UHGV virus genome: UHGV-1751350
Strand: one strand, 5' to 3'
DNA length: 10,738 nucleotides
Origin: a virus
Below, in pieces: positions 1 to 9,213 of the stretch. The position numbers and the translations under genes were made by a program. Each line of letters starts with the position of its first letter. The stretch's first letter is position 1. Below the pieces are notes generated by a model. That model was given only the letters and a program-made list of their open reading frames with translations, searched no databases and had not been told where the DNA came from.

Positions 1-1043
1 CGTTCGTCGGTGGCAGCCTGAAGCAGAGAGCCACCGACGAACGTCTGCATAAGCTGATCTCCACGCATCCCAATGGCTATATGACGCCGCAGGAGTTCTG
101 GGAGCTGGTGGTCACCTGTCTGTGCCTGCGGGGAAACTTTTACGCCTACAAAGTGAAAGCATTTGGCGAAGTGGCTGAACTGCTGCCCGTCGATCCCGGC
201 TGTGTGGTACCGAAGCTTAACAGTAGCTGGGAGCCGGTCTATCAGGTCACATTCCCGGATGGCTCCACGGATGTACTGAGCCAGGAGGATATCTGGCATG
301 TGCGCACGCTGACGCTGGACGGTCTGGTGGGACTGAATCCCGTCGCCTATGCCCGTGAGGCAATATCGCTGGCAGCTGCGACCGAAGAGCACGGGGCCGG
401 ACTGTTCAGCAATGGCGCGGTGACGTCGGGTGTGTTGCGTACAGAACAGACGCTGTCGGATCAGGCTTATGAGCGCCTGAAGAAAGATTTTGAGGAGCGT
501 CACACCGGGCTTGGTAATGCTCACCGCCCGATGATCCTTGAGATGGGGCTGGACTGGAAGTCGATGGCGCTGAACGCCGAGGACAGCCAGTTCCTGGAAA
601 CCCGCAAGTTTCAGCTTGAAGAAATCTGTCGTCTGTTCCGGGTGCCGTTGCACATGGTGCAGAACACCGATCGCGCCACCTTCAACAATATCGAAGAGCT
701 GGGGCTGGGATTTATCAACTATTCACTGGTGCCGTATCTGACCCGCATCGAACAGCGGATCAACACCGGACTGGTACGAAAAAGTAAGCAGGGCGTTTAT
801 TACGCCAAATTTAACGCCGGGGCGTTACTGCGCGGGGATATGAAGTCCCGTTTTGAAGCCTACGCCACCGGGATCAACTGGGGAATTTACTCTCCCAATG
901 ACTGCCGCGATCTGGAAGATATGAATCCGCGTCCCGGTGGTGATGTCTATCTCACACCGATGAACATGACCACGAAACCCTCCGATGGCAGTAAAGCCGG
1001 TAAGCAGAAGGATAACGCCAATGCAGACGAAACAACGTCTTGA
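1..1043 (+). CDS. Phage portal protein, HK97-like family; 5' end lies outside the window
   Basis: ORF track gives 81..1043, but the same frame is open back to the window start (first full codon at 3, no stop before 81), so the gene begins upstream. Size and position immediately upstream of the prohead protease and major capsid genes fit a portal. Family call is from recognition of the translated sequence, not a search. Confidence 0.75.
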   Translation, partial: FVGGSLKQRATDERLHKLISTHPNGYMTPQEFWELVVTCLCLRGNFYAYKVKAFGEVAELLPVDPGCVVPKLNSSWEPVYQVTFPDGSTDVLSQEDIWHVRTLTLDGLVGLNPVAYAREAISLAAATEEHGAGLFSNGAVTSGVLRTEQTLSDQAYERLKKDFEERHTGLGNAHRPMILEMGLDWKSMALNAEDSQFLETRKFQLEEICRLFRVPLHMVQNTDRATFNNIEELGLGFINYSLVPYLTRIEQRINTGLVRKSKQGVYYAKFNAGALLRGDMKSRFEAYATGINWGIYSPNDCRDLEDMNPRPGGDVYLTPMNMTTKPSDGSKAGKQKDNANADETTS

Positions 1044-3142: not shown

Positions 3143-3463
3143 ATGCTTCTGACAATGGAAGAGATTAAAGCCCAACTCCGGCTGGATGAGGATTTCGATG
3201 CTGATGACCGCCATCTGCAACTGCTGGCCTGTGCGGCGCAAAAGCGGACGGAAACGTATCTGAACCGGAAGCTCTATGCACCGGATGAAACCATTCCGGA
3301 CAGCGATCCGGACGGGCTGCACCTGCCGGATGATATTCGTCTGGGGATGCTGATGCTTATCAGCCATTTTTACGAAAACCGCTCGTCGGTTACGGAAGTG
3401 GAGAAACTCGACATGCCGCAGAGTTTTGGCTGGCTTGTCGGCCGGAACGTAACCGGGTATTGA
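3143..3463 (+). CDS. Head-tail connector protein (phage gp6-like)
   Basis: 106-aa acidic protein (MEEIKAQLRLDEDFDADD...), typical in size, composition and position (first gene after the capsid region) of gp6-like head-tail connectors. RBS AGAGGG upstream. Confidence 0.65.
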   Translation: MLLTMEEIKAQLRLDEDFDADDRHLQLLACAAQKRTETYLNRKLYAPDETIPDSDPDGLHLPDDIRLGMLMLISHFYENRSSVTEVEKLDMPQSFGWLVGRNVTGY

Positions 3464-3840
3464 TGCTCCTGCCGGACCCCGGTGAACTGAATAAACGCGT
3501 CCTGATCCGCCAGCGGGTGGATATGCCCGCGGATAACTTTGGCGTGGAGCATCAATACCCGGTTACGTTCCGGACATGGGCGAAGGTTATCCAGACCAGT
3601 GCCACCACCTGGCAGGAAACCGCGCAGACTGGAGACGCCATCACCCATTACATCACCATTCGCTACCGCCGGGGGATCACCGCTGATTATGAGGTGGTCT
3701 GCGGTGACAGTGTGTACCGGGTGAAACGTCAGCGCGATCTGAACGGGGCGCGGCGCTTTCTGCTGCTGGAGTGTACGGAACTGGGCGAATTTACGCAGAG
3801 TCACGGAGGCAGCAATGGCGACTCCCTTTTTTCACGTTGA
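3460..3840 (+). CDS. Head closure / head-tail adaptor protein (SPP1 gp16-like family)
   Basis: 126-aa ORF whose ATG overlaps the upstream stop (ATGATG/TGA overlap at 3460-3463). Size and position after the gp6-like connector match head closure proteins. Family call is from recognition only. Confidence 0.6.
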   Translation: MMLLPDPGELNKRVLIRQRVDMPADNFGVEHQYPVTFRTWAKVIQTSATTWQETAQTGDAITHYITIRYRRGITADYEVVCGDSVYRVKRQRDLNGARRFLLLECTELGEFTQSHGGSNGDSLFSR

Positions 3841-4886: not shown

Positions 4887-5057
4887 ATGTTTGTGAAACC
4901 TGTTAAAGGGCGGTCAGTGCCTGACCCTGCCCGCGGCGACCTTTTGCCCGCCGAAGGGCGAAATGTTGACGAGAACAACTACTGGCTGCGCCGTGAAGCA
5001 GCGGGTGATATCCGGCGCGTGAATAAAAAGGTGAATACCGATGACGATAAGCTTTAA
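4887..5057 (+). CDS. Small conserved phage protein (56 aa; DUF2635-like) immediately upstream of the tail sheath
   Basis: Not in the supplied ORF track (short). I translated it by hand as MFVKPVKGRSVPDPARGDLLPAEGRNVDENNYWLRREAAGDIRRVNKKVNTDDDKL*. GAGGA lies about 7 nt upstream of the ATG, and its 3' end overlaps the sheath start by 17 nt. A small gene at this position is common in Mu-like tail modules. Confidence 0.5.
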   Translation: MFVKPVKGRSVPDPARGDLLPAEGRNVDENNYWLRREAAGDIRRVNKKVNTDDDKL

Positions 5058-6545
5058 CACCATTCCGTCGAATACGCTGGTTCCGCTGTTTTATGCGGAA
5101 ATGGATAACCAGGCTGCGAATACTGCACAGGACAGCGGAGCATCGCTGCTGATTGGTCATGCCAATAACGGTGCAGAGATTGTTGCCAACAGTCTGGTGC
5201 TGATGCCGTCGGCAGACTATGCATGCCAGATTTGTGGTGCGGGAAGTCAGCTGGCGCGTATGGTCGAGGCTTATCGCCAGACCGACCCGTTTGGTGAGCT
5301 GTATGTGATTGCCGTTCCTGAATCCACGGGCGCGGCGGCAACGGTTACGCTGACGGTGACTGGAGCAGCAACCGAAAGCGGCACGGTGAATGTTTATGTG
5401 GGACGTACCCGCGTGCAGGCACCGGTGACCAACGGCGATAACGTCACGACGATTGCCAGCAGTATCCAGGATGCCATCAATGCCGTTCCGACCCTGCCGT
5501 TTACGGCCTCATCTTCGGCAGGCGTGGTCACGCTGACCGCGCGTCATAAGGGGCTTTGCGGGAATGAAATTCCTGTCAGCCTCAATTACTACGGCTTTGG
5601 TGGTGGCGAAGTGCTGCCAGCGGGTGTACAGATTGCTGTGGCGACGGGTACCGCCGGAACGGGCGCTCCGGTTCTCACCGGCGCGGTGGCTGCAATGGCG
5701 GATGAGCCGTTTGATTATATCGGCCTGCCGTTCAACGACACGGCCTCCGTTAACACGCTGGTGACCGAGATGAACGATACCAGCGGTCGCTGGAGCTATG
5801 CGCGTCAGCTGTATGGTCATGTGTATACGGCAAAGATCGGCACGCTGTCAGAACTGGTGACCGCAGGTGACCAGTTTAACCAGCAGCACATTACCCTGGC
5901 GGGATACGAAAAAGACACCCAGACGCCTGCCGACGAGCTGGCGGCCACCGCGCCGGTGAGACCGCCCGCGCAGCGGTGTTTATTCGCAACGATCCGGCAC
6001 GTCCCACGCAGACCGGTGAGCTGGTGGGTATGCTGCCTGCGCCGAAGGGGAAACGGTTCACGATGACAGAACAACAGACCCTGCTGTCTCATGGCGTGGC
6101 AACGGCGTATGTCGAAAGCGGGGTGCTGCGCATTCAGCGTGATGTCACCACGTACAGGGAAAATGCTTACGGGGTTGCGGATAACAGCTACCTCGACAGC
6201 GAGACGCTGCATACCAGTGCGTATGTACTGCGCAAACTGAAATCCGTCATTACCAGTAAGTACGGGCGTCACAAGCTTGCCAGCGACGGTACCCGCTTTG
6301 GTCCCGGTCAGGCGATTGTCACCCCGGCGGTGATCAAAGGGGAACTGCTGGCAACCTACCGTCAGCTCGAGCGTGCGGGCATCGTGGAAAACTACGAACT
6401 GTTTAAGCAGTACCTGGTTGTGGAGCGTGATGCCAGCGATCCAAATCGCCTGAACACGCTGTTCCCGCCTGACTATGTTAACCAGCTGCGTGTCTTTGCC
6501 GTGGTTAACCAGTTCCGTCTTCAGTATTCAGAGGAGTCCGCATAA
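5041..6545 (+). pseudogene. Contractile tail sheath protein (Mu gpL-like), reading frame interrupted by a frameshift in this sequence
   Basis: Two overlapping ORFs in different frames (5041..6066 and 5976..6545) together span 1505 nt, one nucleotide short of a multiple of three. The first ORF's last ~35 aa (…PVRPPAQRCLFATIRHVPRRPVSWWVCCLRRRGNGSR) are Arg/Cys/Trp-rich and look out-of-frame. The second frame is open from 5880 and reads as plausible protein (…GETARAAVFIRNDPARPTQTGELVGMLPAPKGKRFTMTEQQ…). Together they give a ~500-aa sheath directly upstream of the tube gene. Confidence 0.6.
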
Positions 6546-6901
6546 TGGCCCGTATCGGGGGAACCTGTTATTTCAAGATTGACGGTCAGCAGCTATCGCT
6601 GACCGGCGGCATTGAGGTGCCCATGAACAAAACGGTTAATGATGACATCATCGGTCTGGACGGTTCAGTGGACCGCAAGGAAACTCACCGTGCACCTTAT
6701 GTCAAAGGGACCTTCAAGGTACCGAAGAATTTTCCGGTGAGCAAAATCACCTCGTCTGATGAGATGACCATCACTGCCGAGCTGGCGAACGGTCAGGTCT
6801 ATGTATTGTCGTCAGCCTGGCTGCACGGCGAAGCGAACCATAATGCCGAAGAAGGCACGGTCGATATTGAATTTCACGGTGAAGAAGGGGATTACCAGTG
6901 A
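6545..6901 (+). CDS. Tail tube protein (Mu gpM-like)
   Basis: 118-aa ORF immediately after the sheath (TAATG overlap at 6543-6547) with GAGGAG upstream. Size and position are typical of a contractile-tail tube protein. Confidence 0.75.
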   Translation: MARIGGTCYFKIDGQQLSLTGGIEVPMNKTVNDDIIGLDGSVDRKETHRAPYVKGTFKVPKNFPVSKITSSDEMTITAELANGQVYVLSSAWLHGEANHNAEEGTVDIEFHGEEGDYQ

Positions 6902-7221
6902 TTGAGCTTGTACTTAAAAAACCGATCATCGCCCACAAAGAAACACTGCATGTGTTGGAAATACGTGAGCCTACGTATGACGAGATTGAGGCGCTGGGGT
7001 TCCCTTTCTCTGTTTCGCCTGATGGTGGTATGAAAATGGACAGTCAGGTGGCGCTGAAATATATCCCGCTTCTGGCCGGGATCCCGCGCTCGTCTGCAGC
7101 GCAGATGACGAAGCTGGATATTTTCAAGGCAGGCATGATTGTAATGCGTTTTTTTACCGGCTTGGAGACGGAAGAGACCTCAGGAAGCGATTCTACAATG
7201 TCGCGTGGTTCTGGAAATTAA
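6898..7221 (+). CDS. Tail assembly chaperone, short form (lambda G / P2 E analogue)
   Basis: 107-aa ORF between the tube and tape measure genes, the conserved position of the tail assembly chaperone. GTGA start/stop overlap with the tube gene. Contains a T7 run in frame. Confidence 0.65.
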   Translation: MIELVLKKPIIAHKETLHVLEIREPTYDEIEALGFPFSVSPDGGMKMDSQVALKYIPLLAGIPRSSAAQMTKLDIFKAGMIVMRFFTGLETEETSGSDSTMSRGSGN

Positions 7222-7313
7222 ACCCACTTGAACTTCGCCGGACGGCTATTTCCCACTTTGCTGATCTGGAGGCAGAGGCCGTCCGTATAAATGAGGAGAT
7301 GAAGCATGGCTGA
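6898..7313 (+). CDS. Tail assembly chaperone, predicted -1 frameshift-extended long form (lambda G-T / P2 E+E' analogue)
   Basis: The zero frame reads cgT TTT TTT Acc across the T run at 7149-7155. After a -1 slip the new frame stays open from 7155 to a TGA at 7311-7313, overlapping the tape measure start at 7306. Hand translation of the extension: YRLGDGRDLRKRFYNVAWFWKLNPLELRRTAISHFADLEAEAVRINEEMKHG*. Predicted fusion is about 138 aa. Confidence 0.45.
7149..7155 (+). other. Candidate -1 programmed ribosomal frameshift slippery heptamer (T TTT TTT)
   Basis: Seven consecutive T in the chaperone coding frame, with an open -1 frame downstream that runs to the tape measure start. Confidence 0.45.
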
Positions 7314-9213
7314 TAATTTTCAGCTGAAAGCCATCATCACCGCCGTTGACAGGCTATCCGGCCCGCTTAAAGGTATGCAGCGTCAGCTTAAGGGATTTCA
7401 GAAAGAAGTCTCCAGCCTTGCTCTGGGTGCTGCCGGGGCGGGTACTGCAATAATGGGGGCACTGGCACTCCCTGTAAAATCAGCCATCACCCTTGAATCG
7501 AAGATGGCTGATGTCCGCAAAGTGGTGGACGGTCTGGATACGCCGGATGCATTTAAGGCCATGACGGAGCAGGTACGCGCTTTGTCTACAGAGCTTCCCA
7601 TGTCTGCAGACGGGATCGCGGAAATTGTGGCGGCTGGCGGTCAGGCCGGGATTGCACGTGATGAACTGATGCAGTTTGCCACTGATGCGGTGAAGATGGG
7701 CGTGGCCTTTGATACAACGGCTGAAGAGTCCGGGCAGATGATGGCCCAGTGGCGTACTGCGTTTAATATGACGCAGGATGAAGTGGCCGGGCTGGCTGAC
7801 AAAATCAACTACCTTGGTAATACCGGCCCGGCGAATGCGAAGAAAATCTCCGATATTGTTACGCGTATTGGTCCTTTAGGTGGTGTTGCAGGTGTGGCTT
7901 CCGGCGAAATTGCGGCAATGGGGGCAACCATTGCCGGGATGGGCGTGGAGTCAGAAATTGCCGCCACAGGGATCAAGAACTTCATGCTTTCCCTGACCGC
8001 GGGAAATTCTGCGACAAAATCGCAGAAACAGGCATTGCGTTTTCTGCGGATCAATCCGAAGAAATTAGCTGCTGATATGCAGAAAGATGCCCGGGGCACC
8101 ATGCTGTCTGTACTGGATGCGATGGCTAAAGTGCCTAAAGAAAAACGGGCCGCTGTGCTGAATGCCCTGTTCGGGAAAGAGTCTCTGGGCGCGATAGCAC
8201 CTCTGCTGACTAACCTTGATTTGTTGCGTACCAACTTCAGGCGGGTTGCGGATTCCCAGCAGTATGGCAGTTCGATGCAGAAGGAATATGCTTCGAGGGC
8301 AGCGACGACGGAAAACCAGCTTTTACTTCTGCAAAATCAACTTGATGCCATTTCTTCCACGCTGGGGGAAACGTTTCTTCCTGAGGTTAATGATGGTCTT
8401 GAAGCGGTAAAACCGCTCCTTGAGGAAGTGAGAACGTTTGTCCGTGAAAACCCGGAGCTCGTTAAGACCATTGCTAAAATCGGTCTGGCCTTACTGACGG
8501 TGGGAGCCGCTGCAGGCTCTTTGTCCAGAATTATGAAAGTTCTCGGCGGTGTGATGAATATGACGCCAGCTAAGGGGCTGATTGCTCTTCTGGTTGGTGG
8601 CGCTTACCTCATTATTGATAACTGGGAAACCGTAGGCCCTGTCATAAAAAAAGTCTGGCACGTGGTGGATGAAACGGCGCAGGCGATGGGGGGATGGGAA
8701 ACTGTTCTGAAAGCGATTGCCCTGTTTATGGCAACCAAATGGGTTGCTGACGTTACCAAATCCATTACCGCAGTGACCAGAGAGATGCGTACGCTGGGGA
8801 AGGTATCGGCAGAAACGGGATTGATGGGGAAAGGCCGCGGCTTTATCGGGAAGGCCGGGGGATATGGTTTTCTGGGAACCCTGATGTATGAGCCGGTTAA
8901 AGATACTCTGGAAAGTGTTGTTCCTGAAGATACGGTTAACTGGCTGGATAATAAAGGGCTGTTTCTGGCTTCAGACTGGACGCCTTTTTTTGATCGTAAA
9001 GAGTACGAGCAGTATCAGGCCAGCCTGAGCCAGTACAAACCCAATGTTCCGCTGTTGAATCCATCTTCTTCCATGACACAGCACAGCGAACTGAAAGTCA
9101 CGTTCGAGAATGCTCCGCCAGGTATGAAGATAATTGATGTACCGGGCAAAGCCGATCCCCTGATGAAAATCACGCACGATGTGGGGTATTCCCCTTTTCG
9201 TTTTCCACGATAA
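7306..9213 (+). CDS. Tail tape measure protein
   Basis: 635-aa ORF with GAGGAG upstream, directly after the chaperone. Ala/Gly-rich and predicted helical, with a hydrophobic Gly-rich segment (IAKIGLALLTVGAAAGSL…GLIALLVGGAYLII) typical of tape measure proteins. Largest gene in the tail module. Confidence 0.85.
   Translation: MADNFQLKAIITAVDRLSGPLKGMQRQLKGFQKEVSSLALGAAGAGTAIMGALALPVKSAITLESKMADVRKVVDGLDTPDAFKAMTEQVRALSTELPMSADGIAEIVAAGGQAGIARDELMQFATDAVKMGVAFDTTAEESGQMMAQWRTAFNMTQDEVAGLADKINYLGNTGPANAKKISDIVTRIGPLGGVAGVASGEIAAMGATIAGMGVESEIAATGIKNFMLSLTAGNSATKSQKQALRFLRINPKKLAADMQKDARGTMLSVLDAMAKVPKEKRAAVLNALFGKESLGAIAPLLTNLDLLRTNFRRVADSQQYGSSMQKEYASRAATTENQLLLLQNQLDAISSTLGETFLPEVNDGLEAVKPLLEEVRTFVRENPELVKTIAKIGLALLTVGAAAGSLSRIMKVLGGVMNMTPAKGLIALLVGGAYLIIDNWETVGPVIKKVWHVVDETAQAMGGWETVLKAIALFMATKWVADVTKSITAVTREMRTLGKVSAETGLMGKGRGFIGKAGGYGFLGTLMYEPVKDTLESVVPEDTVNWLDNKGLFLASDWTPFFDRKEYEQYQASLSQYKPNVPLLNPSSSMTQHSELKVTFENAPPGMKIIDVPGKADPLMKITHDVGYSPFRFPR

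Follow-up and report, generated by a model that had tools for sequence, protein, structure and literature searches.

A predicted programmed -1 frameshift in the tail assembly chaperone gene of SfIV-like Escherichia coli prophages

We found that the tail assembly chaperone gene of an SfIV-like prophage contains a slippery heptamer, T TTT TTT, in its own reading frame, and that the -1 frame entered at this heptamer is kept open in relatives up to the start of the tape measure gene. The best reading of this arrangement, to which we assign a probability of about 0.85, is a programmed -1 ribosomal frameshift at positions 7149 to 7155, which would yield a 138-aa fusion protein next to the 107-aa product of the zero frame. 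All positions are those of the window, by which we mean the whole stretch of 10,738 nucleotides of virus genome UHGV-1751350 that was analyzed. The features on which the argument turns are as follows.

6545 to 6901, plus strand: tail tube gene, 118 aa; Pfam PF10618 Tail_tube, E = 8.5e-33; 'phage tail tube protein' according to PGAP in the identical locus of CFSAN061770
6898 to 7221, plus strand: tail assembly chaperone gene, short zero-frame product, 107 aa; GTG start at 6898, TAA stop at 7219 to 7221
7149 to 7155, plus strand: slippery heptamer T TTT TTT, in X XXY YYZ register in the zero frame; seven Ts read directly
7155 to 7313, plus strand: -1 frame extension, 52 sense codons at 7155 to 7310 (YRLGDGRDLRKRFYNVAWFWKLNPLELRRTAISHFADLEAEAVRINEEMKHG) and TGA at 7311 to 7313; base 7155 is read twice
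join(6898..7155,7155..7313), plus strand: predicted long product, a fusion of 86 + 52 = 138 aa
7293 to 7298, plus strand: Shine-Dalgarno sequence GAGGAG of the tape measure gene, 7 nt 5' of the ATG, read from the sequence
7306 to 9213, plus strand: tape measure protein gene, 635 aa; Pfam PF10145 PhageMin_Tail, E = 1.2e-42; 'phage tail tape measure protein' according to PGAP

Genomic context and short product of the chaperone gene

Judged from its sequence, the window is the late operon of an E. coli prophage that resembles SfIV and combines a head of the HK97 type with a contractile tail of the Mu type. A Pfam search recovered the head genes for a portal, an S78 protease, and a capsid, and tail genes in the order terminator, sheath, tube (PF10618), chaperone (PF10109), tape measure (PF10145), and DNA_circ_N. 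The region from 6545 to 7400 was 100% identical to the finished chromosome of E. coli CFSAN061770, 97.7% identical to Shigella phage SfIV, and 74 to 77% identical to phiP27 and ST64B; SfV, SfI, and SfII have a tube gene that is 94 to 95% identical to that of the window and a different chaperone allele. SfV/SfIV-like tail modules are found in ~1,079 of 5,426 complete E. coli genomes (about a fifth), and the chaperone allele of the window is present in ~211 of the genomes with such modules. The sheath gene is disrupted in the window copy, which may therefore build no tails, and further local lesions are present in the window.

The chaperone gene is placed between the tube gene, whose TGA stop overlaps the GTG start of the chaperone gene (GTGA), and the tape measure gene. 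We then analyzed the sequence of the short product. Residues 5 to 86 match Pfam entry PF10109 (Phage_TAC_7, the tail assembly chaperones E/gp41/gp14; E = 2e-7, 31.4 bits versus a cut-off of 25) over profile positions 3 to 78 of 79, and the protein also matches phrog_166, 'tail protein' (E = 3.9e-22). The final 21 residues, which form the zero-frame tail past the slip site, are poorly conserved. PF10109 was the sole Pfam match of the chaperone, which showed no match to PF23746 (Mu gp41 family), and none of the NCBIfam models represents the short form, the long form, or the extension. Among the solved structures of the PDB, a profile search returned nothing below E = 0.4, and an AlphaFold model built with P0001, a naturally fused relative, and 4 further sequences was unusable (pLDDT of 41, pTM of 0.27).

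The slippery heptamer and the -1 frame

A first-pass annotation of the window had placed a T TTT TTT at 7149 to 7155 in the zero frame of the chaperone ORF, and both a direct read of the sequence and the codon register of the ORF confirmed this position. The chaperone codons run ...ATG CGT TTT TTT ACC..., in which CGT TTT TTT are codons 84 to 86, and the heptamer stands in the context cgT TTT TTT acc. Taken by itself, the T-run is not statistically remarkable in the window: TTTTTTT occurs 4 times versus 1.9 expected, and at least 4 occurrences were obtained in 39 of 200 shuffles. In-frame X XXY YYZ heptamers are also common, and the chaperone ORF holds a second one, CCCTTTC, at 7002 to 7008. 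We rejected the latter as a slip site, since relatives do not keep it and a stop in the -1 frame follows it; an extension in the +1 frame was rejected as well, that frame being open over no more than 28 codons and lacking conservation. The heptamer at 7149 to 7155 is raised above chance because of its conservation and because of the selection signature in relatives, both of which are described below.

The open stretch of the -1 frame spans 7023 to 7313 (96 codons). It had been claimed that about 52 codons follow the slip site up to a TGA overlapping the tape measure start, and this description proved accurate in codon number and in coordinates: the TGA at 7311 to 7313 overlaps the ATG of the tape measure gene at 7306 (ATGGCTGA), and the Shine-Dalgarno sequence of that gene sits within the final codons of the extension (NEE). 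Peptides within the predicted extension include FYNVAWFWK, LNPLELR, and TAISHFADLEAEAVR, and the extension matches phrog_32181 (E = 4.5e-6).

The sequence diversity used to evaluate conservation was drawn from phage records and from contigs encoding relatives of the chaperone, where a scan of viral contigs gave mostly near-identical copies and a scan of genome contigs gave 6 loci. Nine annotated phages were compared, namely, SfIV, vB_EcoM-720R4, phiP27, ST64B, SfV, SfI, Pantoea AH07, Edwardsiella EPP-1, and Yersinia YeP1. All nine have a zero-frame T TTT TT[T/C] at codon 84 to 89, with a chaperone identity that goes down to ~37%, and in all nine the -1 frame is open to a stop that overlaps or abuts the tape measure start. 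The same arrangement was found in 34 of 36 distinct sequences from 97 loci and in three of four further relatives (Cronobacter-type, Cedecea-type, and metagenome loci), and it is carried by Mixta, Leclercia, Cronobacter-type, and Cedecea-type prophages. The T-run and the open -1 frame are thus kept in related phages, which was the conservation that the first-pass annotation had asked to be checked. Each of the three exceptions is a 1-nt change in the length of a homopolymer: T8 in L020, T6 followed by A in L102, and an extra G 30 nt downstream in L019. Fused variants in the databases have T8 (L020), T5 (P0001), or an extra G (P0007 of Shigella flexneri, seen on 661 contigs), and the fused forms in the protein database come only from such run-length or indel variants.

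Two features of the nucleotide sequence are those needed for a slip site. Whichever of four codons precedes the Phe codons (CGT for Arg, AAT for Asn, GGT for Gly, or AGT for Ser), its last base, a synonymous position, is T, and the first Phe codon is always TTT in the relatives compared. The second Phe codon varies, and the SfV/SfI/AH07/EPP-1 group and L101 have the same architecture with only six Ts (T TTT TTC). At the protein level, the -1 frame encodes a shared motif, R.[YF][ND].A.[FY]W[KR].NP ... A.RI..E, across chaperones of only ~37 to 41% identity, and the end of the extension, ...RINEEMKHG*, is also kept in relatives. Conservation of the -1 peptide starts at the heptamer. Since the -1 frame has stops 21 to 30 nt 5' of the heptamer in several relatives and the zero frame of the SfV group stops 3 codons past it, the change of frame is confined to a stretch of ~36 nt, in which the heptamer is the sole conserved slippery element.

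We then compared selection on the two frames in nine sequences with collinear 55-codon extensions. Variable sites were distributed 15/11/39 over positions 1, 2, and 3 of the -1-frame codons (of 52 each; chi-square P = 2.5e-5), and pairwise pN/pS in the -1 frame ranged from 0.13 to 0.32. In the stretch where both frames are open, pN/pS of the zero frame was ~1, and zero-frame variation peaked at its own second position, which is the third position of the -1 frame. Similar counts were obtained for the SfV/AH07/EPP-1 group (25/16/38) and for the Cronobacter/Leclercia group (23/12/38). The bias toward third positions and the low pN/pS demonstrate that the -1 frame is coding and under purifying selection, in line with the protein-level conservation of the extension on which the frameshift proposal depended. 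The zero-frame tail past the slip site, on the other hand, evolves neutrally and is essentially unconstrained.

Proposed mechanism, alternatives, and annotation

We propose that most ribosomes stay in the zero frame and make the 107-aa protein, while a minority would slip at cgU UUU UUU acc, where the tRNA-Phe in the P site and that in the A site would re-pair one base upstream on an identical UUU. The -1 frame would then be read for 52 codons and end at the UGA inside the start of the tape measure gene. The resulting 138-aa fusion would share its N-terminal 86 residues with the short form and differ from it in ending with a conserved domain of its own. Lambda G/GT and P2 E/E+E' suggest by analogy that the shared N-terminal domain may coat the tape measure protein and that the extension may recruit the tube protein, so that tube polymerization begins on the tape measure; by the same analogy, the ratio of long to short product would be low and fixed, depending on how slippery the heptamer is in itself.

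The H_HHU_UUY class, of which U_UUU_UUY is a member, ranks with the most efficient -1 motifs of E. coli and is active without stimulators, and both U_UUU_UUU and U_UUU_UUC shift at >0.1% without stimulators (PMC4066793). In E. coli, U_UUU_UUU was reported to be much less shifty than A_AAA_AAG (PMC5009743). We looked for stimulatory elements around the heptamer. Folding of 7149 to 7260 as a single sequence revealed no stimulatory RNA (z = +0.5), the consensus fold of nine relatives contained only a 4-bp hairpin (-3.3 kcal/mol), no Shine-Dalgarno-like sequence was found upstream of the heptamer, and an Rfam search gave no match anywhere in the window. As no stimulator was found, the efficiency of the shift may be low.

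The same 138-aa protein (R-F-F-Y...) would be obtained without any ribosomal shift if RNA polymerase added one U on the T7 run. The protein is identical by either route, the site is a pure homopolymer of 7, and the run is indel-prone in databases, as the T8, T6, and T5 variants (L020, L102, and P0001) illustrate; moreover, UUUUUUU is rarer than expected in E. coli genes in all three frames, for which the authors offered transcriptional slippage or a high indel rate as possible reasons (PMC4066793). However, the architecture is the same with the T TTT TTC of the SfV/SfI/AH07/EPP-1 group and L101 and with the T TTT TTG of P2, and the run always lies in the one of three registers that tandem ribosomal slippage needs, whereas polymerase slippage is register-independent. 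The retention of T at a synonymous position after four different codons also speaks against the polymerase, as does the fact that the RNA polymerase of E. coli is not known to slip to an appreciable extent on runs shorter than ~9. In P2, the case was described as a translational frameshift (PMC3091744). We infer that the mechanism is ribosomal rather than transcriptional and regard polymerase slippage on T7 as unlikely. A related idea, which we also hold to be unlikely, is that the T-run may in addition act as a homopolymer switch at the RNA or DNA level, through polymerase stuttering or heritable T5/T6/T7/T8 changes that alter how much short chaperone is made relative to the long form. Databases do contain run-length variants and a fused allele that is fixed in Shigella flexneri, and the variants may equally reflect the decay of defective prophages or sequencing errors. 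If true, such a switch could lock a prophage in a 'fusion only' or 'short only' state and would serve prophage populations as a contingency control that turns tail production on or off.

The remaining explanations dispense with a change of frame, and we consider all of them excluded. It is highly improbable that coincidence accounts for the T-run and the open -1 frame, with the 107-aa protein made alone and the 85-nt gap being non-coding. Such a coincidence would agree with the motif count in the window, which is within chance, and with public annotation, in which only the short form is listed and to which NCBIfam adds no long-form or extension model, but it leaves unexplained why the -1 frame is under clear purifying selection and the zero-frame tail is not, why the -1 peptide motif is kept across such divergent chaperones, and why the open frame always ends at the tape measure start; an overlapping constraint such as the ribosome binding site of the tape measure gene could account for only the last ~5 codons. 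We give even less credit to the extension being a small gene apart from the chaperone, whether with a start codon of its own or translated by re-initiation. phrog_32181 does show that a stand-alone ORF of ~63 aa is called here by some annotators, and KU927493.2 and ON470584.1 contain a further 'hypothetical protein' beneath the match, yet the -1 frame of the window has no ATG, GTG, or TTG before 7299, which is 4 codons from its end, two relatives (L015 and L017) lack any start codon in this frame, and no start position is conserved among relatives. Termination and re-initiation would also miss the most conserved motif, because conservation of the -1 frame begins at the heptamer, upstream of the zero-frame stop in the group of the window. 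Just as improbable is that T7 represents a frameshift mutation or a sequencing error in a single 138-aa gene with a true T8, that is, a pseudogene or an artifact. The fused versions in databases (T8 in L020, T5 in P0001, and the extra G in P0007) and the other local lesions in the window would fit a broken gene, but by far the most sequences are in the split state, with T7 or T6C, and this state is found in the plaque-forming isolates SfIV, SfV, SfI, phiP27, AH07, EPP-1, and YeP1, and the identity of positions 6545 to 7400 to a finished E. coli chromosome is complete.

With the -1 ribosomal frameshift as the preferred reading, the annotation of this prophage group needs to be revisited. The remark that gene callers annotate only the short form was true of all GenBank and RefSeq records inspected, and the long product is absent from all GenBank, RefSeq, and PGAP records inspected for the lineage. 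The genome papers of SfI and SfIV make no mention of a frameshift, and our literature search did not find an experimental study of frameshifting in the SfIV/SfV-like lineage. The phage clusters found in the supplement of an E. coli heptamer survey have A_AAA_AAG, G_GGA_AAG, and A_AAG_GGN motifs, with no T7 cluster among them. The frameshift in this lineage would be new as an annotation, and an earlier compilation of tail chaperones may already list SfV, P27, or ST64B. The phenomenon itself is textbook, being the ordinary arrangement of long-tailed phages, and involves no new principle. The significance lies mainly in correcting how a prophage group found in about a fifth of complete E. coli genomes is annotated: a predicted essential tail assembly protein would be systematically missing from the proteomes of this group, which includes serotype-converting Shigella phages and the Stx phage phiP27. 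As predicted from the sequence, the lineage would also provide a natural example of U_UUU_UUY slippage without a detectable stimulator.

Comparison with lambda, P2, and Mu

The first-pass annotation had likened the chaperone to the two-product systems lambda G/GT and P2 E/E+E'. This view is supported by the gene position, the PF10109 family, the parallels with P2, the conservation in relatives, and the selection on the -1 frame. The predicted fusion appears analogous to lambda GT and P2 E+E', P2 E/E+E' being the closest known system.

Lambda G/GT, with a -1 shift at G GGA AAG, is the paradigm of the conserved tail chaperone frameshift. As in lambda, the gene of the window lies between those of the major tail subunit and the tape measure, its two products would share their N terminus, neither product is known as a virion component, and the shift seems to need no strong stimulatory structure. 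The lambda site works at a low level, with an essential ratio of ~30:1, and in the model of lambda tail assembly the N-terminal domain is bound to the tape measure protein, with the extension serving to bring in the tube protein (PMC5009743). The two systems differ in that lambda is a siphovirus and the window encodes a contractile tail, there is no detectable sequence similarity between them, and the slippery tRNAs are tRNA-Gly/Lys in lambda versus tRNA-Phe/Phe in the window, for which the roles of the two products are inferred.

The likeness to P2 extends to details. Both phages have a contractile tail and a chaperone gene directly 5' of the tape measure gene (gene T in P2), and in both the PF10109 match ends at the slip site, at residues 7 to 85 of P2 E (47.9 bits) and residues 5 to 86 of the window protein. 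The P2 slip site, T TTT TTG, is at codon 84, and the T6-based heptamers of P2 and the window are placed at nearly the same codon (84 versus 85), after ...GFF/RFF. The extensions have 52 aa in the window and 56 aa in P2, and their stop lies 8 nt into the tape measure ORF in both (ATGnnTRA). P2 makes E (91 aa) and E+E' (142 aa) (PMC3091744), and the fusion of the window is collinear with the latter, with the FF slip residues matched. In contrast, the last base of the heptamer is T in the window (C in relatives) and G in P2, overall identity between the window fusion and P2 E+E' is ~13%, the zero-frame tail past the slip site has 21 aa in the window versus 6 aa in P2, and the tail module of the window is of the Mu/SfV type (DNA_circ_N, PF10618 tube) rather than the P2 type.

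We also evaluated whether the extension is related to P2 E', a comparison recommended in the first-pass annotation. The window extension and 11 family members gave no match to PF06528 (Phage_P2_GpE) at E ≤ 10, whereas P2 E+E' matches this entry at 1.2e-21, and an hhalign comparison of the extension alone with P2 E' was not significant (E = 0.016, probability of 2.8%), although the two share the same register, A-x-x-[FW]-x-x-x-P-x-E-L. Profiles of the whole fusion aligned collinearly with P2 E+E' over 116 columns (E = 2.4e-4, probability of 44%). Homology of the extension to P2 E' is therefore best described as suggestive and not established.

The rest of the tail module of the window is closest to Mu (sheath, PF10618 tube, chaperone, tape measure, and DNA circulation protein), and Mu gp41 also matches PF10109, albeit weakly. 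An in-frame X XXY YYZ heptamer is present in the window chaperone and absent from Mu gp41, whose candidate extension is in the +1/-2 frame; this fits the -2 frameshift reported for Mu gp41 (Mup41) (PMC2628397; PMC5009743). Mu gp41 further matches PF23746 at 9e-35. As the window protein lacks this match and has its conserved extension in the -1 frame, its chaperone behaves like that of P2 and not like that of Mu. The lineage would thus be an example of a Mu-type tail module with a P2-style -1 site in place of the -2 site of Mu.

The split sheath gene and other departures from the E. coli chromosome

The sheath gene of the window (5041-6545) is split into two ORFs, 5041-6066 and 5976-6545, and it contains a short patch of divergent sequence. 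Besides this patch, two further short differences separate the window from CFSAN061770, an E. coli chromosome that carries the same locus.

Window 5946-5960: patch in the sheath gene, 15 nt, CACCGCGCCGGTGAG
Window 3444-3468: where the head-tail connector gene meets the head closure gene, ~25 nt in place of ~58 nt in CFSAN061770
Window 1-11: window start, first 11 bases unlike CFSAN061770

The sheath patch stands where CFSAN061770 has AAGCCGT and makes the window 8 nt longer here; the loci are otherwise identical, and the sheath is a single 499-aa ORF both in this chromosome and in Shigella phage SfIV. We found the patch in none of the 1,065 matching complete E. coli genomes (top identity, 95.3%). 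Since the gene is split and the patch is absent from these genomes, the window copy is either tail-defective or locally mis-sequenced in the sheath gene. The replacement at 3444-3468 alters the C terminus of the connector and removes the ATG and first ~12 codons of the head closure gene. Outside these short patches, the window and CFSAN061770 are essentially identical.

A mosaic junction at the tube/chaperone boundary

Related sequences revealed a mosaic junction near window position ~6898, at the boundary between the tube and tail assembly chaperone genes, with the affected region extending to 9213. Through the tube gene, the window matches phages SfV, SfI, and SfII and ~850 E. coli genomes at 94 to 95%, and the similarity of SfV/SfI/SfII-type sequences to the window is lost no more than a few dozen bases into the chaperone gene. 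Beyond this point, the chaperone, its -1 extension, and the tape measure are a different allele in SfV/SfI/SfII-type sequences; the SfIV paper puts the identity of the alleles past the junction at <50%. The chaperone and tape measure genes seem to be swapped jointly, as one cassette.

Length variants of the slippery run and a fused allele

Public data contain variants of the T7 run with eight, six, or five T's (T8, T6, and T5), and a fused allele with an extra G.

L020 (IMGVR_UViG_2534681784_000009, ST64B-like contig) 1746-1753: T8
L102 (GCA_002978915.1) 1455-1461: T6
L019 (phiP27-like prophage of Shigella flexneri) ~1785: extra G; proteins P0003, P0004, and P0007

T8 is the sole difference across 601 nt and joins the zero and -1 frames, T6 shifts the chaperone gene into the +1 frame, and T5 is implied by a database protein, P0001 ("...MRFYRLGDG..."; 9 member sequences). 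Either sequencing errors in the homopolymer or genuine mutations of a site prone to indels could account for these variants.

The extra G of L019 lies ~30 nt downstream of the heptamer, which is itself intact, and fuses the zero and -1 frames ("...RFFTQSETGSTSGKRLYNVAWFW..."). As database records place the fused protein P0007 on 661 contigs, one of them a 4.5-Mb chromosome, this allele looks real and fixed, a "long-form only" version; the prophage carrying it is probably decaying.

The chaperone of phage Mu

L011 (phage Mu) 3553-4131: gp41, the Mu chaperone

The gp41 gene (L011 3553-4131) lacks an in-frame X XXY YYZ heptamer, and only the 144-aa form of gp41 is annotated in the Mu RefSeq record. 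The frame that is open as far as the tape measure start is +1/-2, in agreement with the published -2 frameshift of Mu.
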